Made by a program: the position numbers and the translations under genes. Positions 2,849 through 63,476 of a DNA stretch of 64,000 nucleotides are shown here, piece after piece; positions within the stretch are counted from its first letter, which is position 1, and each line of letters starts with the position of its first letter. The notes under the pieces are model-generated. The model was not told the origin of the DNA, did no database searches, and was given only the letters and a program-made list of their open reading frames with translations. The stretch spans positions 1-64,000 of the forward strand of contig CAVQNT010000003.1 in NCBI GenBank assembly GCA_963714275.1. The letters run 5' to 3'. This stretch comes from Candidatus Bathyarchaeota archaeon. Lineage in GTDB: Archaea; Thermoproteota; Bathyarchaeia; Bathyarchaeales; DTEX01.

Positions 2849-3049
2849 TTAGGAGCTAGTTGGTAGCCAGTCTAAGGCGTGCTGAGCGATCCAATCATGA
2901 GTCCCACAATCTAGATTGGATGGATCTGAACTGAAGCCACCATTGCTCCAAGCATAAACGACTTGAGATGAAAAAGACGAAAAAAAACATAAATGAAAAA
3001 ACAATACTTCTTTTTTATTTTCCCCATGTAGGTAATACCCAAATGTCAC
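2849..3049 (-). pseudogene. N-terminal relic of a zinc-dependent phospholipase C / P1-nuclease-family protein
   Basis: Signal peptide ending in VYA, then W-SNGG...GTHDWIAQHALDWLP (mature N-terminal Trp and THxxI zinc ligands). Truncated after about 35 mature residues. Confidence 0.6.
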
Positions 3050-3298
3050 AATGACTTACCAATAATATATAATTTTCATTCAAGAACTTTGCTGGTTCAA
3101 ACAAACAGAAAAAGATGGAAAAAAGACATATGCAAGAAGTCGCTTTCAATCATTGAATTTCTTAGTTAAAAGTAATGAAAATTTTAGTCAAATCCAAACT
3201 TCTCTATATAAAAAATAAAGAAAACACACAATGCAATAACATTTTAAATATCAAAAAAGAGATAATTCGGATTAATCAAAGTAAAAGAGCGAATTGGA

Positions 3299-3652
3299 AT
3301 GTTTATAAATATTGTTAGATGGCGTGTTCCTAAAGCGAATAGTAAAAAGCAATTTGAGGTCTGGCGTGAAATAATGGACTACCAGAGGTCTCATCCAGAG
3401 AAGGTTTACTACACTAGGTCTCGGTTCTTCACCTTTTCTGAAGAAGGATCGTCTGAGGAAAACTGGATGTTCCTGGATGAGTATGAGCACCGTGAAGATT
3501 ACAACAAATGGATGAAGGCTGTGCGTGAAGACCCAGAACTAATGAAACTCATGGACGATTGGTTCCCCAAATGGGACGCTCTGATTGTTCCTGGGTCTAG
3601 GAAAGGAGAAGTCTGGACTGAAGTTGAGAAGCTCAGGGTCAAGGTCAAGTAA
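3299..3652 (+). CDS. Small dimeric alpha/beta-barrel (ABM/NIPSNAP/DUF1428-like) protein
   Basis: 117 aa. Pattern IVRWRVPK...WMFLDEYEHREDY...EVWTEV is typical of ferredoxin-like barrel proteins. TTTAAATA box upstream. Confidence 0.5.
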   Translation: MFINIVRWRVPKANSKKQFEVWREIMDYQRSHPEKVYYTRSRFFTFSEEGSSEENWMFLDEYEHREDYNKWMKAVREDPELMKLMDDWFPKWDALIVPGSRKGEVWTEVEKLRVKVK

Positions 3653-3908
3653 GTGTTTGTCTTGAAAACTAGCTGACTCGGAAGATGAGCTTGATTGAGT
3701 TATCCGATGGAAGTTAGGCGAGCTTATCAAGATTGTGCCATTAGAGGAAAAACAGAATTTAAATTGCGTTCTTAATTGAAGTGTTTCTGTAAACGCCATT
3801 AGAACTATCCACAAATGTAAGCATCAATCCTTGGATCAGGACATTCTTCTTTATCTCTTCTTTTACACAATTGATAACTTATCAGGAAGGATGGAACGTA
3901 CAAGATTT

Positions 3909-3992
3909 AACGAGGAAACTGTTTTATTTGCCAAGTTTCTGAGAAATGAAAGAGAAACATGGATTCCCAGAACGTCTATTTTTGATTTCTAA
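3909..3992 (+). pseudogene. Putative Cas1-solo (casposase-like) C-terminal relic, copy A
   Basis: Translates NEETVLFAKFLRNERETWIPRTSIFDF*. This resembles, from recollection, the C-terminal tail of Bathyarchaeia Cas1-like proteins. Shares 39 identical bp with copy B. Confidence 0.5.
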
Positions 3993-4105
3993 CTTCTATC
4001 GAGAATTCTCTCGATATTTCTTTTCTCTTTTCTTCTTCTGTGCTCAATGAATTATTTTAGGCTTAAATATTCACGCGCGCTTAAATTCTTGGAGGGTGAT
4101 TCGTA

Positions 4106-4547: not shown

Positions 4548-4618
4548 CCTCACTGATACCATTCCAGACTTCAACTTCCACCTCTTTTTATGTTCGTATA
4601 GACTTGTTGTGTCAATGT

Positions 4619-5472: not shown

Positions 5473-5740
5473 AGTGAGCTAGTCATGGTCTGAGAATATG
5501 CGGATAGTAGCTTGGGTTACTCTTTTATCGCATAATCAAGGATTGCTCAAATGGTTTCTGATGCAATGTATAAAGCAAGGTTCAACCTTGAAGGTTTCGC
5601 CAAAGGGAGATAAGCCACCACCAAGAGTTGTTTTTCGTTATGGTAGACAAGAGAAGCAAATTCGAAGTTTTCTAAGCTTCCGAAAACTCATCAATAATAT
5701 TTTATGGAACTTGAACGGTTAGTAACCGCAGATTAACGAT

Positions 5741-6399: not shown

Positions 6400-6572
6400 G
6401 GGTGAGAGTGAGATTGGGTTTGGTTTGGGGGTTAAAAATTTAATCTTTTCTTCTTCTACAACTACTAACGTTTTCTATCCGTCCTTCTCTAGTCCTTTAC
6501 CTCTCTCTCCTCACAATACGAAAAAATATACTCATACACATGTGAGAGAGAATAATACATCACACAAAAAAC
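6400..6572. repeat. Diverged second copy of the GATTAAATTTTTAACC element (inverted)
   Basis: Exact reverse-complement core GGTTAAAAATTTAATC at 6430-6445. Ends in CACACAAAAAAC (6561-6572). A partial third core lies at 13467-13480. Confidence 0.55.
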
Positions 6573-6618: not shown

Positions 6619-7409
6619 TTAGTGTTCGACAATCTTTGGCAGGGCTTTTGCTATCATACTCCCATGATATGGGTCTAAGGCTGATTTCATATTTCTGTTA
6701 ATTCGTTTTTGATATTCGGTGAACATTCTTTCTATCTCTTTATGGCTTGTATTGGCCAGATGCTCAAGTGTCTTGAATCCCATACTGTAATAATGGTTTA
6801 CACATTTCCCTCTGCAAAATGGGATGCGGCTAAAATCTGCCTTGTTTAGTAATTCATACAAGAACTCCTCGGGAACACTAGTTTCTTTCGATAATTTTTT
6901 TCTTCCCGCTTTTGTGTGTCCCACCTCGAATAAATCAAGGGTGAACTTAATATTGTTTTTACGTAAAGTCATTGCGAATTTCTGTTCATCATGTTTTCCT
7001 TGTCCACTAATTCACTTAAATAAATTTTTTGGGGAAGAACCCAACTTCGTAGATAGTGAAGAAACCCGATCAAATCGTTAATTGTAATATTAGTTTTTTG
7101 AAGAAACAATTCAGCCTTTTCTTTGGTATCTATCGTTAATAATAAACCAGTATAACAGGAAATGCCTGACTCATTAAAATGCTTAATTATTTTTTTAATA
7201 AATGCGGAATATTGGACATACCGTTGTTTAGGGTCACTATCTAGCATTTTTTCAACAAAATGTATGCTTTCATCCATACTATGATCATAATTCTTTTTAA
7301 TGACAGAATACGAAAAAACATCCAGAAATAATTTTATTAACCCTTCATAAGTTTTTGCGCCCGTTCCACCCAAATCTATTTTAGACCAGTTAATTTCCAC
7401 CTGAAACAC
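6619..7409 (-). CDS. DUF4332-like (helix-hairpin-helix) protein, frameshifted
   Basis: Two adjacent ORFs. C-terminal TKAGRKKLSKETSVPEEFLYELLNKADFSRIP..G..YYSMGFKTLEHLA matches the DUF4332 pattern. Confidence 0.65.
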
Positions 7410-7450
7410 CTTAAATCTTCAATCATTATATCGATATTTGACTAGCTCAG

Positions 7451-8446
7451 CTACATGACAGAAGGCAGATGCGGACCTGAAAGGATTTCCTTTATCACTT
7501 CCATTGTTTTAGCAGCGTCTCCGAAGTTTGTTATGGGTTGCATGTCCGCCTTTATGCAGTCGATGAAGTTGCGGTTTATCTGAAAAGAACCGTCAAGATG
7601 CGTTTGTGGTGCGTTGTTCCCAATTATTTCTTCATTCTTGACAATGTTTACTTCTTGATAGGGTTGATTGTCCTTCAGGATTTTGTAATAATCTATTCCA
7701 CGTATCCCAGGAATGTCACCATAGGCCGAGATGCCTTTGGAGTACATCTCGAAGTATAGGACTCGTCCGCCCGAAGTTCTATTACTGGTAAGGATGCCCA
7801 CTCCGCCACTTTCGAATTCTAACACGGCAGTGTAAAAGTTCAAATGATCCTGTGTGTTGTTGTATAGTTGCCCGCTTAGGCTTCGAACCTTCTTGACGTC
7901 GCCACCAATCCAACGCAGTAAATCCACTACGTGGACAACATCATGGGTAAGACTGTCATATTCACCTTTCCACTCACCATACTTATGGAATGCCGTCATA
8001 CAATATAGGATTCTTCCTCTTTCCTCCACAATCTTTTTCGCCTCAACGACGCAGGGATGAAAGCGCCTTTGGAAGCCGACCGCGGTCTTGCAGTCGTTCT
8101 CTTTGGCTAGTTTAGCCCATTTTATTGTTTCTTTAACATCGGTGCCTGGTGGCTTCTCAATAAATATATTTTTACCTCGTTTGAGAGAGTAGGTCACTAG
8201 GGGATCTAAAAACGTTGGTTGCATAATGATGTATACTGCGTCTAAATCCATCTTCTTAAGCATTAATTTGTAGTCTGTGTATCGCCCCCTGATTCCATAT
8301 TTATTTGCGGTGGATTTCACCCTCTCCTCGTTCAAATCGCATATTGCCATCATTTCTATATCGCTCATTTCAGATAGAGAAGCATAATGCGTTTGCGCAC
8401 GACCGCCTGCCCCAATCATTCCAATTTTTATCTTATCCATTTTCAC
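7451..8446 (-). CDS. Gfo/Idh/MocA family oxidoreductase
   Basis: IGMIGAGG Rossmann motif, IEKP, GFQRRF, HDVVHVVD. Confidence 0.92.
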   Translation of the reverse strand: MKMDKIKIGMIGAGGRAQTHYASLSEMSDIEMMAICDLNEERVKSTANKYGIRGRYTDYKLMLKKMDLDAVYIIMQPTFLDPLVTYSLKRGKNIFIEKPPGTDVKETIKWAKLAKENDCKTAVGFQRRFHPCVVEAKKIVEERGRILYCMTAFHKYGEWKGEYDSLTHDVVHVVDLLRWIGGDVKKVRSLSGQLYNNTQDHLNFYTAVLEFESGGVGILTSNRTSGGRVLYFEMYSKGISAYGDIPGIRGIDYYKILKDNQPYQEVNIVKNEEIIGNNAPQTHLDGSFQINRNFIDCIKADMQPITNFGDAAKTMEVIKEILSGPHLPSVM

Positions 8447-8618: not shown

Positions 8619-9928
8619 ATGACATTGATGAAATTGATGAAAAAAATGACGAAAAATCTTGTGGAAGATACCGATTCTTGGAGTTCATCGTCTCCAGAAC
8701 CATCGCTAGCACCCAAATTCAGAGTTGAGAAGGCTGAATCCGGTGGAGACGTTCTTGTAATTGCTGGAGGTGGGAACCCATACTGTTTTGGTAGATGGAC
8801 GAGGCATATTCCAGTTGAAGGTGGCAAAACCTACAGATTTAAAGTACGTTTTCAATTTACTGGAATCGATGACCTAAACCTCAATGTTCTTAATATGCTA
8901 ACCTGGAGGGTGGGAAATAATCCTGAAACTCAATGCCCTCAAGATTATATAGAACACCTCTATAAGGAAAAAGACTACGTAATTGGTGAACAAGTTTTCA
9001 CAGCTAAAAAAGAAGCTTAATGGCGTAGATTTAGGTCTTCTTTTACGCTTCATCGCTGAAGGTGAAGTTAAATGGAATCTGGTAGAATTTATTGAAGATA
9101 AGCCTCCAAAACCAAGATACGTTACTGTAGTAACTATGCGGGGAAAGCCAAGCCAGCCTAGTATGCTAATAAAGAATTTAAAGTATTGGGCTGATCTGAT
9201 AGATCTTGCGGCATCGTATAAACCTGATTTAATTTGTCTTCCAGAAGCTATGAATGCATATTCAATCGTCCAAACTTCACTCTATGAAGTGGCTGAACCT
9301 ATACCTGGTCCAACATATAAAATGATGAAAGAAAAGGCCAAAAAATATCAAACATATGTCTGTGGATGCTTTTACGAGCGAGAGCAAAATTTTGTCTTCA
9401 ATACTGCAGTTCTCTTTGATAGAAAGGGGAATGTGGTTGGAAAGTATCGTAAGGTTCATCCCTACTGGCCAGAAGAACTTCAAGGTTGTAGTCCAGGAGA
9501 TGATCTTCCAGTCTTTAAGACCGATTTTGGTACTGTGGGAATCGTTATTTGTTACGACAGACTGGTTTGCCGAGACAACTAGGCTTCTTGCACTTAAGGG
9601 TGCAGAAATTATTCTTTTTCCCAACGCTGGATATGAAAAGAAATTATTACCTGCCCGAGCTATCGATAATAATGTTTACTTCGTAGTAGCTTCCTTGTTT
9701 AGTAACGCAGTCATCATGGATACGCTTGGAGACGCCTTGGTTGAAGCCAGTTCTGACGGCATCATATCAGCTAAGATTGATCTGAATAGTAAACCTACAC
9801 CTCATCCTAATGCTGGAGGAACCTTGAATGCAAGTCCCGGGGGAAGACGAGGAACACGTAATTCACCTTCCTTGAAGTTGTACCAAGAGATTCTGCGGGA
9901 AGTTGCCCGATGGAAAAGCAAGACATAG
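8619..9928 (+). CDS. Carbon-nitrogen hydrolase (nitrilase family) with N-terminal beta-sandwich extension, frameshifted
   Basis: Catalytic triad motifs LPE, YRKVH and ICYD, plus GAEIILFP. Three overlapping ORFs. Confidence 0.85.
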
Positions 9929-9974
9929 TAGCTAGCCAATAACACTTTCTTTACCCTATTGTTTAGCAACATGG

Positions 9975-12346: not shown

Positions 12347-13369
12347 ATGCCAAAAAAGAAAATATTGTGCATCCCCACAAGGGATCACCTGGAGTATGTA
12401 TTTTCCAAACCGACTTTCAACATGTTGAAGCACAACTTTGATGTGGAATTCAACGTTTTAACCAGAGATTACACATCCGACGAAGTGGCTACCCGAATCA
12501 AGGGGTTCGACGCTTTGATTACAGGCTGGGGATCTCCTGTTTTGACAGCAAATGTCTTTGATAATGCTGATAGCTTGAGGATCATTGTTCACTCAGCTGG
12601 CTCAGTGAAGAATATACTAACCAATGATGTTATTCAAAGGTTTATTATTCCTAAGAAGATTTGTATTTGTAATGCTCCGAGGGCTATTGCATACAATGTT
12701 GCAGAAACAACCTTAGGCTTACTCATTATGATGAGCCACAGATTGATTGATTATGCAGTAAATTTTAAAGAGAAAGCGTTATGGAGAGACCCAAGCATAT
12801 CTAGAGAAGTTTTAACGGTTAATGGTAGTACCATTGGAATTGTGGGAGCAAGTATTGTAGGGAGAGAAGTCATTCGCCTATTGCAGCCCTTTGACGTAAG
12901 GATTTTGGTTTACGACCCCTATCTATTAGTCTCGGATGCAGAAAAGCTTTGTATCAAGAAAACAAGTCTTGAGGACCTGTTCAGTCGGTCAGACTTTGTA
13001 AGTATTCATGCACCATTAACGGATGAAACTTATCACATGATAAATGAACACCACCTAAAACTTCTGCGCGATGGAGCAGTTTTAGTTAATACTTCTCGTG
13101 GGAAGGTCATAGACCAAGAAGCGCTTTTAAAAGAAGCTGAGACAGGAAGAATTTTCGTTGCCCTTGATGTCACAGATCCCGAGCCTTTACCAACTGAGTC
13201 TCCTCTGAGAGAGCTTAGGAATGTCGTAGTCACACCTCATGTCGCAGGCATGGGGACATATGGGATGAAGAAGATAGGTGAGGTGACGCTTCAGGCATTA
13301 GTCGACTTCTTTGCTGGCAGAAAAGTCAAAAATAAGGTTAACTTAGAGAAATATGATATACTCGGATAA
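12347..13369 (+). CDS. D-isomer-specific 2-hydroxyacid dehydrogenase
   Basis: IGIVGASIVG, HAPLTDET, NTSRG, LDVTDPEP, TPHVAG. Confidence 0.93.
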   Translation: MPKKKILCIPTRDHLEYVFSKPTFNMLKHNFDVEFNVLTRDYTSDEVATRIKGFDALITGWGSPVLTANVFDNADSLRIIVHSAGSVKNILTNDVIQRFIIPKKICICNAPRAIAYNVAETTLGLLIMMSHRLIDYAVNFKEKALWRDPSISREVLTVNGSTIGIVGASIVGREVIRLLQPFDVRILVYDPYLLVSDAEKLCIKKTSLEDLFSRSDFVSIHAPLTDETYHMINEHHLKLLRDGAVLVNTSRGKVIDQEALLKEAETGRIFVALDVTDPEPLPTESPLRELRNVVVTPHVAGMGTYGMKKIGEVTLQALVDFFAGRKVKNKVNLEKYDILG

Positions 13370-13534
13370 AAGCATCTTCAAGAGCTAACTAGCTAAAGAT
13401 ATTAAGTTAGCTGACTTCTTCGATACATTGCAAAGCGGATAAGAAAGAAAATAAGAGAGAGAAAAAGGTTAAAATTTAATTCTGACCAGATTTTTGAAAG
13501 CTTAAGCTGACTGGCTTTTAAAAATATTCTATTC

Positions 13535-14461
13535 TTACAGGTACATGTCGAACCATGTCTGGGCGAGTTTTAGGAAGTTTGGTGTGTAAGCGTGGCCTTG
13601 ACCGTGAAGCTCGATGATTGCTCTGGTGTTGGGCAGCCTCTCGTATAATGAGTGTATTGTGTCAGTTGGGCATGCGTCGTCAAGTTCTCCAACTGTGAGT
13701 AGTACTGGATACTTCATGCGCTTGGCGTGGAGTATGGTGTCAACGAAACCTAAAGTATAGAAGCTTTTTTGGAAAGCTTTCTTGTCTTTCGGTAGGTGAG
13801 AAATGAATATTGCGTATGCTCCTTTGTTTTCTTTTGAGTATGCCATGCGAAAACTGGTGAGGAAAGGAACATCAGCAGCTACTGCTCCAACGATGTTTTC
13901 GTCTGAGAGAATGCTGGCTAGGATGAGTGAGGCTCCTCCGCCTTGGCTGCTGCCATAGAATCCGAATTTTGTGTCAACTCTTGGTTGTTTTTGTAGCCAT
14001 CGGAATGCTATGACGGCGTCTTGAAACCAGAAGCGGTATCCATACTCCCTAGGCTTATCGAGGTTTTTATAAAGGACTTGAGGTGTGTTGTCTTGCTCTC
14101 TCCAGCCAAAATTTCCGGGTCCGTCTGGTCCGTTGTAGCCTCTTGGGTTAATATGAAGAATGTGGTATCCAGCGTGAACTAAGTCTGGATGAGATGATGT
14201 TTCTGTTCCATACCCGGGTACATGGATTAGGGTCTTGTGAATGCCGGATATTGGGCATTCCTGCCATAGGCACCAGAAGGGCTGTCCGTCAGTGCCTTTA
14301 AACTTTAGCCATGTCCCTAACCCAGCGTGGTAGTCATAGGCCTCGTTTGGCTTGGCAGCACGTTCAATTTTTTCTATTGGTTCGGGGTCTTTGAGCACTT
14401 CTAAAAGTGCATCATGCCAGTATGATTCTACTTCAGCTTCGGACGGATAATTATCTGACAT
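13535..14461 (-). CDS. Acetylxylan esterase / cephalosporin-C deacetylase (CE7-like alpha/beta hydrolase)
   Basis: GSSQGG nucleophile elbow, DVPFL, D..CP and GH catalytic motifs. Confidence 0.85.
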   Translation of the reverse strand: MSDNYPSEAEVESYWHDALLEVLKDPEPIEKIERAAKPNEAYDYHAGLGTWLKFKGTDGQPFWCLWQECPISGIHKTLIHVPGYGTETSSHPDLVHAGYHILHINPRGYNGPDGPGNFGWREQDNTPQVLYKNLDKPREYGYRFWFQDAVIAFRWLQKQPRVDTKFGFYGSSQGGGASLILASILSDENIVGAVAADVPFLTSFRMAYSKENKGAYAIFISHLPKDKKAFQKSFYTLGFVDTILHAKRMKYPVLLTVGELDDACPTDTIHSLYERLPNTRAIIELHGQGHAYTPNFLKLAQTWFDMYL

Positions 14462-14750
14462 AATTGCAAACCTGCGTTAAGAATTTCCTGATTGAAGCAT
14501 CATCTGTCTCTAAAACTTTGGTTTTGAACCAAATATATATTTCGACGTCAACAAAGGTTGATTTTTTTAGAAACAAAACATAACATTGACCCGACCAAAT
14601 AGGTCTTATGGGTGTCTCAATGTAGCAAAGTCTAGCTAGCTAGCCATCACAAATAAAACACTACTTCAGGTATAAAAAATCACAACCTTAATCCTCAATA
14701 AAGCTTCCACTAACCGATTTAATGAAAAGCTCTAAGGTCTAAGTTAAGTT

Positions 14751-15882
14751 TTAAGCATGGTATTTGCCGTATTTTCTGGCTTCGTCAACCATTGTGTATA
14801 TGTTTTCGACCTTGCAGTTTGCGTGTAACGAATTGCTTGATGCGAGAATGTAGCCTCCGTCTTTGGCTGCGGCGTCTATGCATCGGCGGACATCTCTTCT
14901 AACATCTTCCTCTGTTCCGAAGGGCAGAACGTAGCGGCAGTCAACGTTTCCGAGGATGCAGACTCGGCTTCCATACCTTGCTTTAACGTCTTTCAGGTCC
15001 ATGGCTCCCGGCTCAACTGGGTGGATGCCGCGGATTCCAGCCTCAACCATGTCGTCAAGAATCGGGTAAACGTTTCCGTCTGAATGTTTCAGAACCGGGA
15101 CTCCGTTCTTTTTGGCTAAGGCGACCATGCTGCGGATGTTGGGAACTCGAACTCCCTGAACTGTTTCAGGCTCATCAGTGGCGAATGGCAGTCCGCATAG
15201 TCGTCTGTTATGAACGCCACTTCAGCGCCGGCTTCAAGCATCAGTTTTACCATGCCACGGCAGGTTTCAGCAATTTTGTCCATAAATTTCCTCAGCTGCT
15301 AAAGGTTTGCGGTACATGTCTATGATGAGTTTGTCGATTCCACCTCGAACTTGGAAAGCCATATGCCAACCTGCGTGTCCCTGACAGACAACAGCGACAT
15401 CCTTATCCTTAAGAGGTTTGATGGACTTTTCAGCCATCTCATACATGCCTTCAGCCTCAGGGTCAGGCGGCACGTAGTTCTCCATGCCTTCTTCGGTTTC
15501 CACTGTTGCGCTGACCCACCAAGTTGTTTTTGTGTCCCGCCTGGAATCCAGTATTCTCCCCCACTCGTCGATGAACCGGGTTGCAGAAAGAAACCGAGGC
15601 TTGTAGCCCATACTGCAAAGCGCATAGTCACTTATGGCTGGAACAGCGTCAAACCCAAGCCTTCAGACACGCCTTTCCAAGAGCAATTCTGCTTTGGACC
15701 GAGGCTGCCCAGGGATTGTCTTCCGAACCAGCTATGAGGCTGAACCCGCCTAGGCTTTCGCCCGTTATCGCCTCTATGATCGGCGGGTCAAGACCAAGAT
15801 CCGTGATCGGAACCATGTCCGGCTGCTTCAGGTCAACCGCAGCGTAGAACCTTTCCCGACGCGACATACCCATACATGTCAA
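14751..15882 (-). CDS. Uroporphyrinogen decarboxylase / MtaA-CmuA family protein, frameshifted
   Basis: MSRRER...PDMVP, DEWG, TDDYA, HSDG, GNVD, GGYILASSNS. Confidence 0.85.
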
Positions 15883-18753: not shown

Positions 18754-19638
18754 TCAAAATTGTAATAGGCTTGTTTGGCTCTTATCTAATGAACATTTCA
18801 TTCTGAATTCGCAGTAATTGCATTTCCATGAATTCTCTTTTGTGACTTTTACAGCTTCTCTTTCGCCTAGCCAGTAGTCTTTTGTAAAGTCTATGTATTC
18901 TGCAAATTTCTTTTCATCGAACTTGAATCTATGTTCACCTATCAGTTTTCTAATTTGCTGGTATTCATAGAGAATTGTTAGTTCTTTTGAGGTGTCAGGA
19001 AGATTTGGTAATAGCTTGAATGTGGCTCTGGCTAGTTTGTTAATGTTTGGTTCTATATGTATCTCTTTGGAAACAATTTCTTCTTCAAATTCTTTGCTTA
19101 TTTTAGTAGATAGATCGAAATTATAGAAAGACATTAGATCATTGTGAGTGAAAGAGCCAAGTTTTGAATCTTCAAAAAGTTTGTAATATAACATGAGTTG
19201 AAATTCATTAGGGATCATCTGTTCAATTCTTGGCATGTTTTTTCCCCTTCTGGTTTTGTGATCAAGAATTTCAACCATTTCGTTTCTTATCCTCAGCTAC
19301 ATTGATCATTCTAAAACAAAGATCGAGTCTATTCTTCCAAAAACAGGCAGTTCTCTAGTCAATCCCGTAGCCTTAAGTCGTGTAATGCCTACTTGGGCAT
19401 TATGAAGGCGAACTGCAATTTCATCTTCTGTGGTTTCAGTTTTTACAGGAATTAATTCAGCAATTTCTTCATGAAGTTGACTGTGCCTTTTGGTTCCAAT
19501 AATCTCTTCTTCTTTCTTTTTTTCTCCATATTCAAATCTAAACTCTAATTGTTTCTCGCACCAGAGTTGATTAGCAAGCCAGTGGACAGCTACACCCTTT
19601 TTCCCATATTTTTCTATTGGAGTAGACAGCTGAATCAT
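18754..19638 (-). CDS. Exonuclease V (Exo5) / Cas4-like PD-(D/E)XK nuclease with Fe-S cysteines, frameshifted
   Basis: WCEKQ, GTKRH..LHEE, RELPVFG, DHKTR, QLMLY, and C-terminal KCNYCEF..KC. Confidence 0.85.
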
Positions 19639-19661: not shown

Positions 19662-20223
19662 CTAATCTGAAAACGATTTTTTGTTTTTTTGGATTAGAAA
19701 CCAGTAGGTTAGTAGGTCTTTTTCTTTGGTTTCGTAGTCTGGAAGTTTCTTGTTTATGAGTTTCCAGAATGTTTCGTTATGTTTTCTTTCTATGGAGTGG
19801 GCTGTTTCGTGGTAGATGATGTATTCGATTAGGTTCTTGTGGCAAGTATTTTAGGAGGGTGTTGACGGTTAGGTTTCCGTTTTTGCTGTGGCTTGCCCAT
19901 TTTGTCTTCATTTTTCTGAAATAGATTCTGTTTATCTTTGTGTTGAGTTCTGTTTGATAGTTTTGGGCGAGTGTGTTAACGAGGATTCTTAGTTCTTTGT
20001 CTGTTCTGTTTTGGTTGATGGTTTTGGTTTTTGCTTCTTCGAGGGCTTTTTTTATGAGATTGTTGTTTCTGTTGTATCCATTTTTTGTATTTTTCGAGGG
20101 TTTGTTTTTCGCTTTTGTAGCTTTTTGGCAATATGAGGAGTAGGGTGCCTGTTTTGAATTCGAGGCGTGGGTGTTTTACGTCGCGGTAGGCGAGTGTGTA
20201 TTCGATGTTGTGTCTTTATCCAT
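19662..20223 (-). CDS. M48/YgjP-like (SprT) zinc metallopeptidase coupled to type I R-M, frameshifted
   Basis: RKMKTKWASHS..GNLTVN and YIIYHETAH..ERKHNETFW. Its start overlaps the hsdR stop (ATGGATAA). Confidence 0.8.
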
Positions 20224-23200: not shown

Positions 23201-23239
23201 ATAATCTTCCACGAGGGATTTTTCACTAAATAATGGCAT
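20216..23239 (-). CDS. hsdR: Type I restriction endonuclease subunit R (many frameshifts)
   Basis: SEKSLVE N-terminus, GLIWHWQG.GKT, FIDEAHR, TGTP, MLLTGFDAP, LLQAIARTNR. Confidence 0.92.
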
Positions 23240-23246
23240 GGGATAA

Positions 23247-26325: not shown

Positions 26326-26349
26326 TTAGCTAGCTAGCTCAGCTAACTT
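26326..26349. repeat. Longest copy of the dispersed AGCT/CTAG-periodic boundary motif
   Basis: TTAGCTAGCTAGCTCAGCTAACTT. Relatives at 7441, 13382, 14632, 32131, 46764, 47833, 56536, 59330, 63221 and elsewhere. Confidence 0.8.
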
Positions 26350-32072: not shown

Positions 32073-32354
32073 AGTCCAAGTTATTTAGAAAGCAAATTTG
32101 TTATGGTGTCTTCAGCAGGTTAGAAGCGTTTTAGTCAGCTAACTAGTGAGCTTAACTTTATCTTCACAGACCGCTTATGTTTTAGTCTGTTAATGTCTCA
32201 TAAGCTGACGGATTTCGAGATGTTTGCTGCCATAATCTCCTCGTTGTTTGGCGTCTTCACGAAAGCTGGGACATTCCTCTGTTTCGTCGCCTTGTAAGAA
32301 ACAAAAAGTCATTCACCAAGATCCAGACTCTGTTGTTTTATCAAGCAGCCCGAC

Positions 32355-45070: not shown

Positions 45071-45147
45071 AAGCTAGTAATATATATCAAAAGTTGAGAA
45101 TACATAACTCAGGATATTAGTGAGCTAGTAAATGAGTGTTTGAAGAT

Positions 45148-46660: not shown

Positions 46661-46823
46661 AACGCCCCAAAAATTCGCAGTTAAGGCAAAAATTCCTCCC
46701 TTCATTTTTACTCAGAGATCTACTTTTAAACCTTGATTCTTGGCGTTTTACTAAATAATTATATAGCTAGCTAGCTAGCAAAACAATTAAGGGTAGAAAA
46801 GAGACAACAAATGGGATAGAATC

Positions 46824-47822
46824 TTGAACTCCAGAGAGAGATTTGCTGCTTCGCTCCGCTTTCAACAACCAGATAGGATACCATTCTATGACGAGGAGAT
46901 TCGTGAAGAAACCTTAGCACGCTGGTATGAGCAAGGATTGCCAAAAGGTAGGGATCCGAGGGAGCTTTTTAGGTTAGAAAAGTGGGATATTGTGCCAGTC
47001 AACTTGGAAATGATCCCAGAATTTCAAGGACGATTCAGGTCTAGGAAGGATTCCGAGAGACTTAAAAAATCATTCAATCCAGACGAATCATCAAGGTATC
47101 CCACCAATTGGGAGAACCTCGTTGGTCGATGGGAGGATCGCGACTATCCACTCGGAATATCGGTTTGGGAAGGATTCTTTCAACCATTCAATTCTGGAAG
47201 TGTACCAGATACAGTGTATCATTCGCTCACGGATATTGTCCGAATGATATACTCAAATCCTGAACTCTTGGTAGAGACGGTCAACTTCATCGCCGAATTC
47301 GTTATCAGAACGATGAGCAAAACGCTCGATGAAGTGAAGATTGATTATGCTATCATATGGGAACCCATTGCAGAAAACAAAGGTCCTGCAATTTCACCTC
47401 CAAGTTTTCAAGATTTAGTGATCCCATGCTACAAGAGAATTATAGAAACCCTCAACAGTCACGGAATTGACATAATCATTCTCAGCACCTTTGGAAACGT
47501 GAAAGAACTGATTCCTCTATGCCTTGATGTAGGGATTAACGTATTATGGTGTAGAGGAACCAAACCTGCAGGAGTAGACTATGTCGCCCTAAGGAAGAAG
47601 TACGGGCAAAAGCTAGCTCTAATAGGTGGCATAGACATAGGATGTTTGACTGAAGACAAAGAGGCAATCAAAGCTGAAATATACTCTAAGGTTCCACCAC
47701 TCCTCTCTTCAGGAGGATACATTCCCATGTTGGACGGAAGAGTACGTGAAAATATACCCTTTGAAAATTATGCCTACTATAGGAGACTCATTGAAGAAAT
47801 AGCCTGCAAGAAAATGGAATGA
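46824..47822 (+). CDS. Uroporphyrinogen decarboxylase / MtaA-CmuA family protein
   Basis: MNSRERF..PDRIP, GPAISP, GGID, GGYIP..D. Intact 332 aa. Confidence 0.85.
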   Translation: MNSRERFAASLRFQQPDRIPFYDEEIREETLARWYEQGLPKGRDPRELFRLEKWDIVPVNLEMIPEFQGRFRSRKDSERLKKSFNPDESSRYPTNWENLVGRWEDRDYPLGISVWEGFFQPFNSGSVPDTVYHSLTDIVRMIYSNPELLVETVNFIAEFVIRTMSKTLDEVKIDYAIIWEPIAENKGPAISPPSFQDLVIPCYKRIIETLNSHGIDIIILSTFGNVKELIPLCLDVGINVLWCRGTKPAGVDYVALRKKYGQKLALIGGIDIGCLTEDKEAIKAEIYSKVPPLLSSGGYIPMLDGRVRENIPFENYAYYRRLIEEIACKKME

Positions 47823-47891
47823 TTAAAAACCATAGCTAGCTCACTTAAATTCTAACAAGCGAGCTGGCCAGAGACTGAGTTCAAACACGCG

Positions 47892-48451: not shown

Positions 48452-49988
48452 TCAGGAGCTACCCGGATAATCTAGGGAGTAGTGGATTCCACGGGTCTCT
48501 TTTCGTCGCATGGCTGAGTTGATAATTAGGTCAGCTGCCAAAGCCATGTTACGGAGTTCTACGAGGTCTTCGGTTATTAAGAAGTCCCAGTAATATTGGT
48601 CGATTTCTCGCCTGAGGAGGGTTATGCGGTCTTTAACTCGGGCTAATCGCTTGTTGGAACGTACGATTCCCACATAATTCCACAGCAGACGACGTATTTC
48701 ATCCCGATTGTGGGTGACAACCACCATCTCGTCACTGTCTACAGCTTCACCGGGTTCCCAAGGTGAAAAAGGCTGAAGGGAGATCCTTTTTTTCAAGAGT
48801 TTTTTGCATCTTTCAGCCTGTGTATTTTCCACAGACAAGCCCTTCTATGATAGAGTTGCTTGCTAACCTGTTTGCTCCATGGAGCCCTGTACAGGCAACT
48901 TCACCTATGGCGTATAGTTTTTCAACGTCGGTTTCGCCCTCTACAGTTGCTTTTACGCCTCCGCAACAATAATGGGCGGCGGGAACTACTGGGATCGGCT
49001 CCTTAGTGATGTCAATTCCGAAAAGGAGGCATTGTTCATAAATCTCAGGAAAGCGGGATTGAATGAAGTCAGGATCCTTCATCGAGATATCGAGTAAGAC
49101 ATAATTTTCACCGCTCATCTTTAATTCGTTATCTATTGCTCGTGCCACATTGTCTCTTGGAGCGAACTCCATCATGGGATGATAGTCGCTCATGAACCGA
49201 AGTCCTCTTTTATTCGTAAGGATTGCTCCCTCACCCCTAAGAGACTCTGATATCAAAAAGGACTCTGCTAGTGGATGATACAGCGTCGTCGGATGAAACT
49301 GGGTGAATTCCATGTCCATTATGGCTGCTCCAGCCCTGTAAGCCATAGCTATCCCATCTCCTGTGGCAACAGCTGGATTTGTGGTATGAATGAAAATCCT
49401 GCCAATGCCTCCTGTTGCCAATATGGTCAATTTGGATACGAAACTGCGGATCGTAGAGCTCTTTCTATCCAGAACATAACAGCCTACACATAGATTATTC
49501 TTAACAACTAAGTTGACTGCAATCTGGTTCTCAAGTATAGTGATGGAAGGATGCTCTGAAGCGGCTTTTAACAGGACCCGCTCAACCTCCCTACCTGTGA
49601 GGTCGTTAGCGTGAACTATGCGACGTTTAGAGTGTCCTCCCTCAATGCCTAGGTCGAAATCGCCAGTTTCTGTCCTGTCGAAATCTGCACCCATCTCTTC
49701 AAGTTCTTTGATGCATGCGGGTGCAGTTCGAATGATTTTTTCAACGACATTCCTGTCACATAGCCCATCACCACAAACTAACGTATCATTGATGTGGCTT
49801 TCAAAGGAATCATCTGGAGACAAAACTGCAGCCAATCCTCCCTGAGCATAATTCGTGTTTGACTCAGCCTTTTCCTTTTTAGTGATCATAAGTACATGCG
49901 CAGAATCAGCAATTCTCAATGCAAAAGACAATCCTGCTACTCCGCTTCCAATCACCAAAACATCTGAGGACATGTCTGCGTGTTCCAT
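48452..49988 (-). CDS. nadB: L-aspartate oxidase, frameshifted
   Basis: [64 protein letters not shown]. Confidence 0.95.
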
Positions 49989-50132: not shown

Positions 50133-51018
50133 TTAACTCAAGTATTTTTTCAAAAACGTCACAACTCGACTAAAAGCATCAGCCACTGCCGGATCCCTAA
50201 AGTCCTTATCAAAACCATGCTCGCCATCATGGATGGTAATCAGTTCATGCTTTACGCCAACGTGCGCAAGTTCGTTTGCCATCATTAATGATTGGCTGTA
50301 AGGCACGTCTGTGTCTTTGTCACCATGCAAAAGCATTGTCGGTGGATATTCTTTTGTTATGTTACGGATTGGGCAAAATGAATCAAATACTTTGGGCTCT
50401 GTATTCGGATCATGCCCCGACATTTCCTTGGGCCAAAGACCATGTTGGCGACAGTAAAGGTAAAATCGTCCTCGATTAGGTTGACTTAGGGCTTCCGAAA
50501 TTACTGGTCCGCCTACAGATGCATATGCTTCTTCTTTTGGAACAAGGGACTGCTTACAATAAAAAGGATCAGGTTTGCTGTACCAGTCTCCAGTGATATC
50601 GCCATAGCCATAAAACGAAATGAGTGCTTTTGGGCGTGGATTAACACAAAATCCCGCCATTAATGTCAAATATCCTCCAGCAGAATGACCAATTATAGAC
50701 TATGCGATTTGGATCAAGATTTAAAAGATGAGAACTTTCTTCACGAATCCATTTATAAGTATCTTGGATATCCTCAATAATTGCTTTCAATTTAGTTTCC
50801 GGGGCTAAACGATAGTCAATTGAAATTAAAGTATATCCTGCCTTAACATATAGTCCAATCTGATCAGGGTTGATGTTTTCCCTGTGGCCCGTAATTAATG
50901 CGCCACCATGTATCCACATTACTACTGGACGATTAACATCATCCGAAACCGTATATACATCTGCCTTAATCTCACATCTTTCAACAATCTTGTAAGTGAA
51001 ACTTTGTTTATCAATCAT
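50133..51018 (-). CDS. Alpha/beta hydrolase (esterase, HSL/BD-FAE-like), frameshifted
   Basis: IHGGALI, DYRLAPE, GHSAGGYL, HGDKDTDVP, HGFD. Confidence 0.9.
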
Positions 51019-54566: not shown

Positions 54567-55918
54567 ATGAATTCCGCTGAGCAAAAGCGATTTGTTGGGA
54601 TGAAGGGGTTCACTGTTATTTGGATAGGTCAGCTGTTCTCTTTACTCGGTACTTCCATGACTGCATTTTCACTTACAATTTGGGCTTGGCAACTAACGGG
54701 TAAAGCAACCGCGTTAGCTTTAGTGGCTTTTTTTAATTTTGTTCCTTTATTGTTGACAACACCCTTTGCAGGGGCTATTGTAGACCAGTCAAACCGAAAA
54801 AGAGTGATGATTAGTGCTGATCTAGCTGCGGGTTTACCTACTGTGGGTATGCTATTGCTTAATACTGCTGGCAATTTGCAGATTTGGCATGTATATATTG
54901 CTACGGGTATCGCTGGTGTATTTCAAGCATTTCATTTTCCAGCTTATTCAGCAGCTGTGACAATGATGGTGCATAAAGAACAATATGGTCGTGCCAGCGG
55001 AATGCTTTCAGCAGCAGAATTTGCTTCAGGAATTTTTGCCCCAGTTGTTGCTGCCATAATGATGAATATTGTGGGTCTTAATGGCGTAATGACCATAGAC
55101 ATAATTACTTTTATTTTTGCCATTTTTTTATTGATGCTCATTAATATTCCGCAGCCTTTAGTCACGGACGAAAGACATGATGAAGCCAGAAACATTAGGA
55201 AGCAATTATTATTTGGATTTAGTACATTTTTAAAAGACCTAGCTTGTTAGGGCTTCAGCTAGTTTTGTTTTCGAGCAATTTGCTATCGAGCTTTGGCAAC
55301 ACTGTTGTGTCTCCAATGATTCTAGCCCGCACTAATAATAATTCGATTTTGTTAGGGAGCGTTATGTCTGCTGCCGGAATCGGGGGAGTTGTAGGTGGTG
55401 CAGTGTTATCAATCTGGGGTGGACCAAAACGTAAAATCCACGGCGTACTTATGGGAAATATATTAATGAACTTGCTTGGTTGGTTTTTTGTGGGGCTAGG
55501 ACAAAATTGGATTATATGGACTTTAGCAGCGTTCATAGGCGTCTTTTTCCTTCCGATACTAAACGGTTCAAATCAAGCCATTTGGCAAGTTAAAGTTCCC
55601 CCTACAATGCAAGGGCGTGTTTTTGCTGCTAGGCGTTTTATAGCACAAATGGGAATGCCGCTTGGTATGCTTCTCGCGGGTTCTTTAGCTGATGGTTTTT
55701 TTGAACCAGCTATGACGTCGAATGGTAATCTTGCAGCAATTTTCGGAAACTTAGTTGGCACAGGACCAGGATCTGGCATGTCACTCATGCTTATTATCGC
55801 TGGTTTATTTGGAACAATTGCAGGTATAGGTGCGTATAGATTTCGTGCAATACGAGACGCTGAAGATATCCTGCCAGATTATGACGTATCCCAGAAGGAT
55901 CTGACTCACAGCGTATAA
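54567..55918 (+). CDS. MFS transporter (DHA3/MefA-like), frameshifted
   Basis: WIGQLFSLLGT.MT, GAIVD..NRKRVM, WQVKVP..MQGRVF. About 12 TM segments. Confidence 0.9.
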
Positions 55919-56466: not shown

Positions 56467-56640
56467 AAAATCCCTCCACAGTCATGCCTTCAGATAGTAC
56501 TAATCATTAGTTTAAATATGCTAGCTGATCATCTTGCTAGCTCAGCTAAGTAAAATGAGTAGTTATCTATCTAAGAGTAAAATATATTAATGGTAAAAAG
56601 TGAAGTCCTAATTGCTTCCCTAAATGATTGAGGTTTCAGT

Positions 56641-57127: not shown

Positions 57128-59186
57128 ATGTCTAGTATTAAGAGAAGCCCAGTCTTTATAATAGTTAGTGACAACAAAATGATTGGACACTCTGTATATC
57201 CAAACTACGGAAAAAAACTGTTATTGAAAACCTCTGCAGCGCTACTTCTAGGAATAACTTTGGGAACAATGCTGTTTAGCCTAGGCGGATTATTATCGCC
57301 AATCATCCCTGGACCAATAGTGTTCTCAGGCGCGTCGCCCATGGTGAGGTTCTCATCATACGGCGAACTTAAGACATTTGTCAACAAAACTGGATCAATA
57401 TCTGGGCCATGGAGGTACTTCCTTGACAGCGCCAAAGCAGGAACCGCAACGAATGCACCGGCAGCAGCGGCCGCAGAAGGCGCTTATTCAGCGCCCCGTT
57501 ACTCCCAAACTAATGTTCAAGTTGAGGGAGTAGATGAGGCCGACATAGTGAAGACAGACGGGCAGTACATTTACCTTGTATCAAATGGGAAGGTCTTGAT
57601 TATAGAAGCATATCCAGCTGAAAATGCCAGAGTTGTCGCTGAAATACCGTGGAACGGAACGATTTTCGGATTATACGTCAATGGAGACAGGCTTGTCTTC
57701 TTCGGAGATCAAGGCAGATATTTCATTAGACCAATGCTCGATTTTGCAGCGCCTTGGTACTACGGAGGCTTCGAAACATACATTCAGGTGTATGACATCT
57801 CGGATAGAACAAATCCTGTCCTAGGCTAGGAACGTTACTGTTGATGGTGGTTACACAAACTCCAGAATGATTGGCGACTACGTGTATGTTCTATTGAACT
57901 CACCGGTCTACGTGAAGGAAGACAATGAAGTTTTCCTTCCATCAATAAGCGACAACAGCAAAGTCGAATCCGTCGATGCTACAGACATATACCACTCAAA
58001 CGTTACTGACTACTATTACTCGCTGACAATGATTCTCGCTCTGAATGTCCAGAACGACCAAGAACCAATAGCTCAAGATAATTTTATGCTGGGGTACGCA
58101 AGTTCAATCTTTGTCTCCCTGACCAATATTTATGTTGCAATACCAAAGTATGAGCAAGATGGAACACAGAAAACTGAGGTTCACAAGATACATGTAGACA
58201 ACAGCAAAATAACTTACGAAGCTGCCGGCAAAGTGCCTGGGTACATTTTAAACCAGTTCTCCATGGACGAATACAATGGCTACTTTAGAATAGCGACAAC
58301 AGAATACAATTATGGAGTAGTCTATGAAGATACAAAGAACGGAACAGTAACAGTTACCAAAATCGAAGAACCTACAATCGTGAATAACGTGTACGTTCTA
58401 AACCAGAGCATGGCAACTGTTGGAAGCCTTGAGGGACTTGCTCCAGGAGAAAGAATATACTCTGCACGGTTCATAGGAGCCCGATGCTACTTGGTCACAT
58501 ACGTCCAAGTTGACCCGCTTTTCGTAATAGACCTCAAAAACCCAGAAGACCCCAAAGTGCTAGGCGAACTAGTGATGCCGGGATACTCAAATTACCTACA
58601 TCCGTACGACGAGAACATATTGATCGGCATAGGCAAGAACTCCACTGAAGTACAAGGAGAATGGTGGGGAGCCTATTATCTAGGCGTCAAAATCTCACTG
58701 TACGACGTCAGCGACGTTGAACATCCAAGGATAATAAAGGACCTCATGATCGGTGACAGAGGAACAGACTCAACCGCTTTAACAGACCATAAAGCTTTCC
58801 TGTTCGACAAGGAACTGAACCTTCTTGCAATACCTATCCTGCTTGCAGAGATAGATGAATCAAAATATCCTGATGGAGTCCCATCAACCGCCTATGGCGA
58901 ATACGTGTGGCAAGGACTTTACGTCATGGACATAACCGCGAATGACCTTACACTCAGAGGCACAATCACCCACATAGACAACTTACAAGATGGCTACATA
59001 CTTTGGGAATACCAAATAGAGAGATCTCTGTACATCGAAAACATGCTTTACACCATATCGAACATGAAGATCAAAATAAGTGACCTGACGACCCTTAAAA
59101 CAGTAAACGAAATTATCATTAACAACAGTAGTAGCAATGGCAGTAGCGATGGAAGTAGCAGTGGAAGTAACGGTGGAAGAGAATAA
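57128..59186 (+). CDS. Secreted beta-propeller domain protein (Beta_propel family), frameshifted
   Basis: YSQTNVQVEGVDEADIVKTDG, LNQFSMDEY.G.FRIATT, GERIYSARF, VDPLFVIDL, PGYSNYLHP, DHKAFL. Confidence 0.92.
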
Positions 59187-59342
59187 ACTACCTAAAACGT
59201 TTATAGCCCCTTTTTCTATTTTTTTTAATCCTTAACATGCTTATGAATTGGCAATATGGACTATAGGCACACATTTTTTTATATGATAGGTTCATAAAAA
59301 AGGGAAGGAGTGCCTAGATCATCCTGAGAAGCTAGCTACTTA

Positions 59343-59567: not shown

Positions 59568-59748
59568 TAAAAGTCAGCTAGTCGAGTACTGAACCGAGTA
59601 TTGATCTGAAACCATGTAAAATAGATCATATTGAGAATTCTCTCTGCACTATGGCTGCCCTATGCGCATTATCAACCAGTACGACATAAAGCTTAAAAAC
59701 ACTCAGATTACTCTTTGAAACGACCGAAACAAAGGTGATGAAGAAAAT

Positions 59749-61713: not shown

Positions 61714-61808
61714 AATAGCGCGCGCTGTCATGAAACGTTCTAGGTTATTGTCAATTTTTCGTTATGTCTTGGCAAAGAATATAAAGCATTATACGATATT
61801 CATGGTTA

Positions 61809-62658
61809 GTGATGTTCTTGGTTTTTTGTATAAAATGTGGAGCAGAAATAGACGAAAACGCGAAGTTTTGTCCTAAATGTGGCGCAAGTGTATCTGCCAT
61901 TGAGACGCAGAGCGCGTCCATAAAATACGAAATTAAGTATCGACCATCGTATTCTCTTCTCGAGGTTCAGCTACCGAACAACGGTTTCATCACGGCTGAA
62001 GCTGGCGCCATGGTTTACATGAGCAGCAATGTTGAAGTAAAAACCCACACGAGGGTTGAGCGGTCAGGACTTTTAGGCACACTCAAGGTTTCAGTGCTTG
62101 GCGGAGAAACGCTGTTTATCAATGACTTCTTTGCCCGTGGCGGAGATGCCAAAGTCGGGTTCGTTTCAGCTCCGCTTGGCGACATTACACGATTAGAGAT
62201 TAACCAAAACAAGGGATACATCATTCAAAGATCCGCTTACATTGCCTCCACGCCAAATGTTAAACTGGACACTCAGTGGCAAGGTTTCACGAAGGGGTTG
62301 TTTGGTCAGAACCTGTTCATGATTAAGACCCTGGGCGATGGAGACGTTTTCGTGAACACTTTCGGAGCTATAGACAAGCATGATTTGGGACCTGGAGAAA
62401 AGTTGATTGTGGACAACTACCATTTAGCCTGCCCTGAGCACGACTTGCCAGTATCAAGTGCGTATGTTCGGAGGACTCAAGTCCACATTGTTGAGCGGAG
62501 AAGGGCTCATTACGGAAGTGACTGGACCCGGAGAAATCTACGTTCAAACCAAGAACCCTCGCGAATTTGCAGACTGGCTCTGGAGATACATAGGTCCAAA
62601 GGTTCACGGTGCTAGCGCTATTAGCAGTCATGGATATACGCATAAAATACCTCATTGA
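61809..62658 (+). CDS. Zinc-ribbon + TIGR00266/AIM24 family protein, 3' frameshift
   Basis: CIKCG..FCPKCG, AEAGAMVYM, GGETLFIN.F, VDNYHL, SGEGL...TGPG.IY.QTKNP. Confidence 0.9.
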
Positions 62659-62791
62659 TTCTTGCATTCTGCACGTCCACTTTGCTCATTGCTTTTCAAT
62701 ACATTCAATGCAGCAATATCAACGTAGAATTCAAAGCTCTGAATCAATTAGGTGGTGGTGGATTATATTTTAATCAACTAACCAAAACCTA

Positions 62792-62970
62792 TCATAGTTC
62801 TATTCCGAACTTTTCCTTTAATTCTTTTCTACCTTGTTCAGATAGATACCATTTGGTTCCTCTTCCACCTGAACCCTGTTGCTTTAACCAACCTTGTTTT
62901 ACACAGTACTCAAGAAACTTGGCTCCTAACCAAAAGGGATTAATTAGTTTTTCAAACATTTTCCCACTTG
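62792..62970 (-). pseudogene. Winged-helix protein C-terminal fragment
   Basis: LINPFWLGAKFLEYCVKQGWLKQQGSGGRGTKWYLSEQGRKELKEKFGIEL*. In-frame stop upstream. Confidence 0.4.
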
Positions 62971-63476
62971 AATGACCTATCGTTTTTTTATTAAAGGGGT
63001 ATATATCTAAATGATATAAAATTTCATATACCTATAAAAAATTATTAAATTTTACAAATTAGATCTGGATGGAAGCTTTAAATAAGATACTGCCCACGAT
63101 GTTTCCATCCAGATCACCTAATGCATAACAAAAGAATTTCAGAGAACATGATAAATTATTGACTGTTAATATGCACGCTAGATTTTTTTCTTTTTCTTTT
63201 CTCTCTGATATCAATTTCAACAGCTGAGCTAGATAACTAACTGTAGTGCAGATAGCTCGCAGTAAAAATTCATTTTTGTTTCAAATGAGGAAATGATTTG
63301 AAGTCGACTTTTTGTAAAGTTTTGGTAATTCGTCTTGTTATACTGTCATTAATCTTTTTTGTTTATTCATAAATTGTGAAAAGATATTTAAAAAAAACAG
63401 CGCTGTTAACAAAAATTTTTTATAGATATAATGACTAACAATTATCATAATCTTATTAAATAAGAAGGAATCAGAG

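Follow-up and report, generated by a model that had tools for sequence, protein, structure and literature searches.

Short self-complementary CTAG tracts are enriched at module junctions in variable DNA of a Candidatus Bathyarchaeota genome

The first 64,000 nucleotides of contig C3 (GenBank contig CAVQNT010000003.1 of assembly GCA_963714275.1; hereafter the window) of a Candidatus Bathyarchaeota archaeon contain many intergenic copies of a short motif built from AGCT and CTAG. A first-pass annotation, made from the letters of the window, had described the motif as degenerate and proposed that it represents sites or junction scars of an integron-like or cut-and-join mechanism that swaps modules of one to three genes. 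Underlying that annotation is a short, self-complementary tract of tetranucleotide units, (CTAG)n with n of about 2-5, which reads TAGCTAGCTA... and has a sister form, TAGC(GC)nGCTA. That such tracts mark junctions in hypervariable, non-syntenic DNA was borne out by the analyses described here; the integron-like part of the proposal was not.

The genome (G000) comprises 2.64 Mb in 10 contigs (C2, C3, C4 and C5 are referred to below) with 43% G+C, whereas the genomes of its relatives, among them G001-G006, G013 and G021, measure 1.1-2.2 Mb. Its small-subunit rRNA is archaeal (1492 bits), and its proteome is non-acidic, with a median isoelectric point of 6.9 over 761 long open reading frames (ORFs), which led us to reject a haloarchaeal source. 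Crude gene calls made for this analysis assign 76% of the genome to coding sequence. In the window are genes for sugar metabolism, for oxidoreductases, for a type I restriction system and for a mazF-like toxin, together with many of unknown function. All 22 motif coordinates annotated earlier carry the letters quoted for them. Seed words recover 24 loci in the window, of which 14 contain at least two overlapping seed words and 10 are strong; the annotated sites at 2853, 8497, 18590, 37291 and 45071 are weak partial matches of 9-11 nt that are not countable alone. The placement of copies between genes and outside hsdMSR also held, with all 14 multi-word loci lying between called genes and none at 20-26 kb. 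The loci and their surroundings are as follows.

3670-3678: TAGCTGACT tract, 17 nt past ORF 3299-3652 and directly before a within-genome homology end at 3679
5473-5482: AGTGAGCTAG tract, in a 1.4-kb non-coding gap
7442-7453: CTAGCTCAGCTA tract, between minus-strand ORFs 6969-7409 and 7451-8446
9926-9937: TAGTAGCTAGCC; the first TAG serves as stop codon for ORF 9356-9928, which encodes part of a carbon-nitrogen hydrolase
13382-13416: GAGCTAACTAGCTA and AAGTTAGCTGACT, two short tracts between convergent genes 12347-13369 and 13535-14461
14632-14644: CTAGCTAGCTAGC, a pure tract
26326-26345: TTAGCTAGCTAGCTCAGCTA, the window's longest locus, lying in the divergent gap that separates hsdM (24750-26210, minus strand) from ORF 26403-27137
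32132-32152: TAGTCAGCTAACTAGTGAGCT, 59 nt past the mazF-like gene 31731-32072
45071-45077: AAGCTAG; homology to the ortholog locus in G002 begins at the next base, 45078
45118-45128: TAGTGAGCTAG tract, found at the same place upstream of the ortholog in G002 and 4 nt shorter there (TTAGCTAGT)
46764-46779: pure (TAGC)4 tract, between genes 45278-46660 and 46824-47822
47833-47845: TAGCTAGCTCACT, 10 nt after the stop of gene 46824-47822
56520-56548: GCTAGCTGATC and CTAGCTCAGCTA, in a divergent gap
59330-59338: AGCTAGCTA tract, after gene 57867-59186
59572-59580: AGTCAGCTA tract
63222-63232: AGCTGAGCTAG tract, in a long non-coding gap

The locus at 3670-3678 is the sole one in the window to adjoin a within-genome homology end, and a scan of the 26-nt flank of the 26326 locus against metagenomes returned no match.

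The tract is far more frequent than base composition predicts. Within the window, AGCTAGCT occurs eight times against 0.74 expected, a count that none of 100 shuffled sequences reached, and TAGCTSAGCT gives seven matches at four sites against 0.16 expected. Over the whole genome, with both strands counted and a fourth-order Markov model as expectation, TAGCTAGCTA occurs 90 times (45 sites) against 2.3, GCTAGCTAGC 84 times against 2.1, AGCTCAGCTA 99 times against 6.6, TAGTCAGCTA 48 times against 3.6 and TAGTGAGCTA 44 times against 1.9; a second palindrome family, TAGCGCGCGC, is found 45 times against 0.3 expected. The tetranucleotides themselves are ordinary, with observed/expected ratios of 0.91 for CTAG and 0.95 for AGCT. 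Pure words are 92-97% intergenic and are still 12- to 26-fold enriched relative to intergenic-only composition (TAGCTAGCTA is 97% intergenic, with 78 occurrences against 6.6 expected inside intergenic DNA alone). The core consists of two AGCT units at a spacing of 0 (135 against 12) or 1 (144 against 11), and spacings of 2 and 3 show no enrichment. Pure (TAGC)n loci are 8-20 nt long, 203 of them at least 8 nt and 68 at least 10 nt; as head-to-tail repeats of a 1-6-nt unit in varying copy number, the tracts are microsatellites. Among other tetranucleotides, GGCC is strongly avoided genome-wide (observed/expected 0.34), and CCGG (0.65) and GATC (0.66) less so, a pattern expected from restriction-modification pressure on those sites.

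Merging overlapping seed words produced 1111 loci genome-wide, 339 of them strong. The strong loci fall in tandem (159), divergent (69) and convergent (64) gaps, which total 390, 136 and 100 kb, respectively, and in called genes (47); they are densest per kilobase in convergent gaps (64 in 99.6 kb, compared with 69 in 135.6 kb of divergent gaps). A link to promoters or terminators was rejected, as distances to the 3' and 5' ends of genes are uniform within the host gaps, with the exception that 12 of 287 loci facing a gene 3' end overlap that end at the stop codon. A larger hidden element around the motif, such as a miniature inverted-repeat transposable element, was likewise ruled out, the flank logo being at background beyond about 4 nt from the core.

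The first-pass annotation's central claim, that the motif marks module junctions, can be put in terms of where homology within the genome ends. Comparison of the genome with itself yielded 613 non-self matches, with 720 de-duplicated match ends in intergenic DNA. A strong locus is no more than 10 nt away from 59 of these ends, where 10.6 would be expected, a 5.6-fold excess over random intergenic positions (maximum 23 in 200 draws). With pure (TAGC)n alone the enrichment is 7-fold (41 ends against 5.8), and for tracts of at least 10 nt there are 16 ends against 2.3. The distance from tract edge to homology edge is -4 to +5 nt in 48 of the 59 unique cases. Homology resumes beyond the tract at none of 89 such ends, and for 77 of them a strong tract is missing from the corresponding end of the partner copy. 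A tract is present on both sides of 12 fragments (84-397 nt), nine of which derive from source copies with no tract on either side. These tract-bounded fragments are mutually unrelated; some are pieces of genes, and one begins exactly at the start codon of its source gene. Gene relics behave similarly, with 18 of 364 truncated ends in intergenic DNA genome-wide within 10 nt of a strong locus against 4.0 expected (4.5-fold; maximum 13 in 300 draws), whereas natural protein ends show no such proximity (0 of 273 against 3.2 expected).

The distribution of the tracts across lineages and along the genome is uneven. Pure sites (TAGCTAGCTA) number 45 in G000, 17 in G002 and 4 in G004, all of the same genus, and are absent from four other congeners and present 0-3 times in 24 further relatives; a reversed-word control gives 7 in G000. 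The tract is thus a trait confined to one subclade. Strong loci are clustered, with 18 in C5:160-180 kb and 27 in C2:340-400 kb and none across stretches of 80-100 kb. The expected contrast between core and variable DNA was evident, in that tract-rich C5:160-180 kb is non-syntenic, with scattered matches on different contigs of four congeners, whereas tract-free C2:160-180 kb is syntenic at 73-89% identity nearly throughout. The window between 40 and 60 kb resembles the rich region, each of its genes matching a different contig of the relatives. In C5:160-180 kb, tracts bound nearly every one-gene module. The module at C5:160507-162416, for example, has a tract at both of its new joints, and its paralog and its copies in G001, G002, G004 and G005 share another, conserved, tract-free upstream context, indicating that the tract belongs to the new joint and not to the module. 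A comparable arrangement is present in G002, where four tracts separate four small ORFs within 2 kb.

Near-identical parts of C5:160001-180000 occur in 24 public sequencing runs from 19 studies of freshwater sediment, wetland and peat, indicating that the population or its modules are widespread. Strains were compared by placing contigs of four runs from four studies on this region, parts of which had little or no coverage in some runs; nothing is concluded from those gaps. Among the joints listed between strains, 5 of 11 have an end at a tract, in agreement with the idea that breakpoints coincide with the motif, and one of the five has a tract within its inserted letters. Four of the 12 best-supported indels (57 further indels are unlisted) are inside tracts (-4 nt, -1, -1 and +GC); both -1-nt changes hit the central base of AGCT-N-AGCT, and the +GC change is in a (GC)n form. 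Tract loci cover less than 2% of the compared stretch. An independent contig of 3.4 kb covers three tracts and their flanks, so the layout is no assembly accident of G000. In run X1, one contig links sequence upstream of one module copy with sequence downstream of its 98% identical paralog; it is possibly chimeric across the repeat and was not used.

The genome contains a 9.1-kb inverted duplication of 98% identity (C2:80457-89565 and C2:962456-971573) near both ends of its 1-Mb contig. Fast change of tracts in this recent duplicate was considered and rejected, as its three internal loci show no indel of 2 nt or more and the letters that differ do so in an error-like manner.

Such differences bear on the 'degenerate' units of the motif (TCAGC, GTGAG, TGAC), which are probably for the most part pure (CTAG)n altered by consensus error or hypermutation in this assembly. 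At two internal loci of the 98% duplicate, several letters differ between copies with identical flanks; the two versions are not reverse complements of each other and therefore do not reflect real inheritance but look error-like. Within duplicates of at least 90% identity, tract loci differ at 16.7 and 9.7 per 100 columns, isolated CTAG/AGCT sites at 7.1 and 6.3 and all other positions at 4.4 and 3.4, and gaps are about five-fold more frequent at isolated CTAG/AGCT. An independent metagenome contig from the Joint Genome Institute (JGI), 99% identical over 520 nt at 47833, has pure TAGCTAGCTAGCTAA where the window has TAGCTAGCTCACTTAA. G002, with its 17 pure sites, has no TAGCTSAGCTA, and the sites retrieved from G002 and G004, a biased sample in that they were chosen around pure hits, consist of clean TAGCTAGCTA plus 0-1.5 further units. 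A counter-example is found at position 634 of the compared rich region, where other runs read AGCTGAGCT against AGCTGACT in G000, so the one-base-spaced form exists outside this assembly too. The sequence comparisons therefore suggest that the true motif is probably (CTAG)n and that its degeneracy mostly reflects unreliable consensus at CTAG/AGCT. The assembly is probably a long-read one, judging from its 10 contigs and many split genes, and base modification at CTAG/AGCT would explain consensus errors there. The methylation-site alternative offered in the first-pass annotation may thus be indirectly right, given the error-proneness exactly at CTAG/AGCT.

In practical terms, an unreliable consensus at CTAG/AGCT inflates the apparent degeneracy of the motif and may explain some apparent pseudogenes. 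Genes found in at least two pieces in the window are those for Exo5, HsdR, HsdS, an S9 peptidase, a beta-propeller protein, a major facilitator superfamily (MFS) transporter, a fumarate-reductase-type flavoprotein and a carbon-nitrogen (CN) hydrolase, with split genes at 18754-19638, 48452-49988, 50133-51018, 54567-55918, 57128-59186 and 8619-9928. Stretches of 20-60 nt were inspected at eight gene breaks, and six of these stretches contain CTAG or AGCT; some gene breaks may be consensus errors and not pseudogenes. The minus-strand pieces of HsdR, split into at least three ORFs, lie in a stretch of extreme strand composition (20001-24000; GC skew +0.40 and AT skew -0.52 at 20-22 kb), and HsdS is split too.

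The explanation that we tentatively favour is illegitimate, Ku-independent end joining that leaves the self-complementary tracts as scars and can use them again as joints. When a break occurs inside a tract or next to it, the broken end would be rejoined to another through the 4-nt self-complementary register of the tract. Every tract end could pair with every other one, whatever their orientation and in more than one register. Units would be gained or lost through slippage or fill-in, and loose DNA fragments could be caught between two tract halves. This model builds on direct observations, namely the enrichment of the tracts, their restriction to non-coding and non-syntenic DNA, their position at homology ends with a tract-less partner, the unit-size indels and joints between strains, and their confinement to a subclade; the break-and-join chemistry, the way in which a first tract arises and any enzymes that act are inference beyond these observations. 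Ku (PF02735) was not found in G000, a profile search in which the control set of 14 genomes gave Bacillus subtilis as the only match, and the genome searched is 91% complete. Ku-dependent non-homologous end joining does not fit a genome in which Ku was not found, and end joining here would instead depend on microhomology.

Several points weigh against end joining at the tracts. Most homology ends (661 of 720) and most truncated relic ends (346 of 364) have no tract, and most tracts have no detectable junction. The homology ends are not independent events, since repeat families supply several pairs, and the gene calls are crude. No empty site was found, which makes a target site and a scar indistinguishable. 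No nuclease, recombinase or polymerase was tied to the tracts, and at a ratio of 0.91 CTAG shows none of the avoidance that a restriction system cutting it would leave. Because many genes of the assembly are split and its consensus is error-prone at CTAG/AGCT, some of the sequence variety is technical and not biological, perhaps including some of the 1-nt indels between strains. Finally, the stable tracts, namely the one at 45118, placed alike in G002, and the one at 47833, whose flanks are both conserved in another strain, could be functional cis elements.

Among known processes, microhomology-mediated joining that captures filler appears to be a closer match than the integron, except that a single simple tract keeps recurring here. 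Such end joining, like template switching, leaves filler or captured DNA at joints and has no need of Ku. Joints of unrelated sequences, short copied fragments at joints and small unit-size indels are common to both, whereas ordinary joints lack a recurring sequence and here one self-complementary tetranucleotide tract recurs. Work by Liang, Jensen and Frank-Kamenetskii from 2004, and by Ogata and Miura, is said to have obtained palindromic tandem repeats in vitro from thermophilic polymerases combined with restriction or nicking enzymes. Such products resemble the tracts in being tandem self-complementary short units and would explain both (CTAG)n and (GC)n, but theirs is an in-vitro reaction, and no enzyme that cuts the tract is known from this genome. 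Repetitive extragenic palindromes (REPs) are 20-40-nt imperfect palindromes that share a conserved head and are associated with a RAYT (Y1) transposase. Like REPs and bacterial interspersed mosaic elements (BIMEs), the tracts are short, palindromic, intergenic, lineage-specific, linked to rearrangement and present in hundreds of copies; unlike them, they are a simple 4-nt repeat, shorter than a REP and without conserved flanks. Interstitial telomere-like repeats, which sit at eukaryotic chromosome breakpoints and are themselves fragile, offer another example of a simple short repeat at old rearrangement joints, although neither telomerase nor linear ends are implied here and the unit of the tract is self-complementary.

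An alternative that we consider unlikely holds that the tract is a cis element with a function of its own, such as an operator for an island regulator, a chromatin or insulator site or a methylation cluster, and that its position at junctions follows from its abundance in islands. In its favour, the core forms a palindrome of 10 bp, genes for small winged-helix regulators belong to the most highly repeated ones, and the tracts at 45118 and 47833 are kept in place between species or strains. The error-proneness at CTAG/AGCT hints at base modification, and an N4/N6 methyltransferase (C2:149617-150270) is common to the three tract-bearing genomes at 94-96% identity. The same enzyme is found, however, in G003, G006, G013 and G021, which have 0-1 tract sites, and a second N4/N6 methyltransferase of the genome is family-wide, so neither of these two bears out the suggested co-distribution of a methyltransferase with the motif. 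A cis element is also difficult to reconcile with the uniform position of tracts in gaps, with no preferred distance to a start or stop, with the use of all gap classes, convergent gaps most densely, and with variable tract length. Moreover, intergenic positions served as the baseline for the enrichment at junctions, and no more than a few nucleotides separate the tract from the homology edge.

A dedicated site-specific cut-and-join system, integron-like or new, in which a recombinase or nuclease acts on the palindromic tract to move cassettes of one to three genes, seems to us rather unlikely. In its favour are the tract-bounded arrays of one-gene modules in G000 and G002, the fragments with tracts at both ends, the restriction of the trait to one lineage, and the palindromic form of the tract, which is like that of sites bound by dimeric enzymes. 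Arrays of one-gene modules of unrelated function, a recurring short site and a location in the variable part of the genome are also features of integrons, and metagenome-assembled genomes of archaea carry integron cassette arrays (Ghaly et al. 2022, PMC9668308). As described there, attC sites are folded and structure-specific, are acted on by IntI with a specific extra domain, and belong to cassettes that generally share one orientation (PMC9668308). Neither a folded site nor a common orientation was detected here. Folding of 14 window loci as DNA, each extended by 35-40 nt on either side, gave z scores from -1.66 to +0.33, with none beyond -2; the loci are not paired at 20-120 nt; and non-palindromic variants show no bias relative to flanking genes (the four classes of AGCTCAGCT number 38, 27, 26 and 29). 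Flank conservation does not extend past 4 nt, the site itself measures 8-20 nt and varies in length, and module copies elsewhere are usually without it (77 of 89). A co-distributed recombinase had been suggested, but the tyrosine integrase family (PF00589) is present in 23 of 31 relatives regardless of tracts. A search limited to four DDE transposase families (PF01609, PF13359, PF00665 and PF13358) and TnpB (PF07282) found none of them in this 91%-complete genome. In a variant that appears about as improbable, an undescribed system of the subclade would use (CTAG)n, possibly marked by modification, as an orientation-free joint at which a nuclease or recombinase captures, duplicates and shuffles modules. 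If true, such a system would do the work of an integron with a palindromic joint of 10-14 bp where integrons use attC, and it would explain the enlarged, mosaic genome.

Less plausible still is that the tracts are selected stop pads, as the first-pass annotation had also envisaged, which keep ribosomes from crossing new joints. The letters fit, as TAGCTAGCTAR stops three frames and YTAGCTAGCTAR all six; the statistics do not. Period-4 triple stops are 1.39-fold enriched (the commonest being TAGCTAGCTAG, 44, and TAGCTAGCTAA, 27), but other compact all-frame arrangements are depleted (0.83-0.88 for periods 5, 7 and 8). TAA is the commonest stop codon (335 of 761 long ORFs), yet period-4 words based on TAA or TGA are rare (TAACTAACTAA, 4). 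The flanks favour Y before and R after the core, providing a third stop on each strand, which C-to-T decay of tract ends explains equally well. The overlap of 12 of 287 loci with the gene 3' end they face and the independent allele at 47833, a pure tract ending in TAA, would suit stop pads, whereas the sister motif TAGC(GC)nGCTA has no internal stops and close relatives do without tracts.

It is very unlikely that the tracts are target-site duplications or excision footprints of a transposon inserting at CTAG or YTAR and stacked by repeated visits. Read in the YTAR register, the loci consist of CTAG, TTAG and CTAA units in series, cut-and-paste elements leave palindromic footprints, and several insertion sequence (IS) families use CTAG-containing targets. 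The pairing of a transposase with element copies abutting the target, by which such footprints are recognized, was nevertheless not found. Besides the five families named above, no transposase is present among the 20 longest products of repeated genes, and repeats of at least 330 nt correspond to cellular genes, integrases, a winged-helix gene and cas1, with no matching element. The fragments between tracts, as noted, are unrelated to one another. That the core tract is a sequencing or assembly artefact is scarcely credible and already largely refuted, for although the degenerate variants are error-like and 10 contigs with many split genes would suit a long-read-only assembly, the pure tract is enriched in G002 and G004 too (which we take to be short-read assemblies from the contig name of one relative), contigs from independent runs and the JGI contig span tracts with both flanks, one tract is kept in place between species, and a repeat of 10-16 nt is too short to mislead a long-read assembler.

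End joining at self-complementary tracts, our preferred reading, would make these tracts a clear natural case of a microsatellite acting as a hub of illegitimate recombination in a Ku-less organism, if no enzyme system lies behind them; if one does, they would reveal a new route to cassette arrays. The Bathyarchaeia count among the most abundant uncultured archaea of sediments, and the tract gives a concrete handle on the plasticity of their accessory genome. Word searches of the open-access literature, supplements excluded, returned no description of CTAG tracts at junctions or of such an archaeal motif, which is weak evidence that the tracts are unpublished.

Other intergenic words are also over-represented genome-wide, namely CCCAAACCCA/TGGGTTTGGG (54 against 6.8 expected), TTAAATTTTA (86 against 12.3), and TCTGATTTGT (52 against 5.8) and TTTGTGTGAC (40 against 4.3), the last two together forming GGTCTGATTTGTGTGACA. 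CCCAAACCCA/TGGGTTTGGG and TTAAATTTTA co-occur as ...GATTAAATTTTAATCCCAAACCCAAACCC... beside (AG)n runs. Sites of over-represented words include window positions ~6400-6450, in the flank of the copy C3:6576-6444, and C2:357396-357532, and GGTCTGATTTGTGTGACA also flanks the G002 ortholog of gene 45278-46660. The window further contains three genes or gene pieces of the uroporphyrinogen-decarboxylase (URO-D) family within 64 kb (14751-15882, 40801-41277 and 46824-47822), one of them fragmented; this family includes methyltransferases of methylotrophic pathways. The repeated genes of G000 include cas1 (C4:100201-101235, repeat depth 2), the tyrosine integrase family has 10 matches in the genome, several of them broken, and small winged-helix (HTH_45) genes reach up to six-fold repetition.

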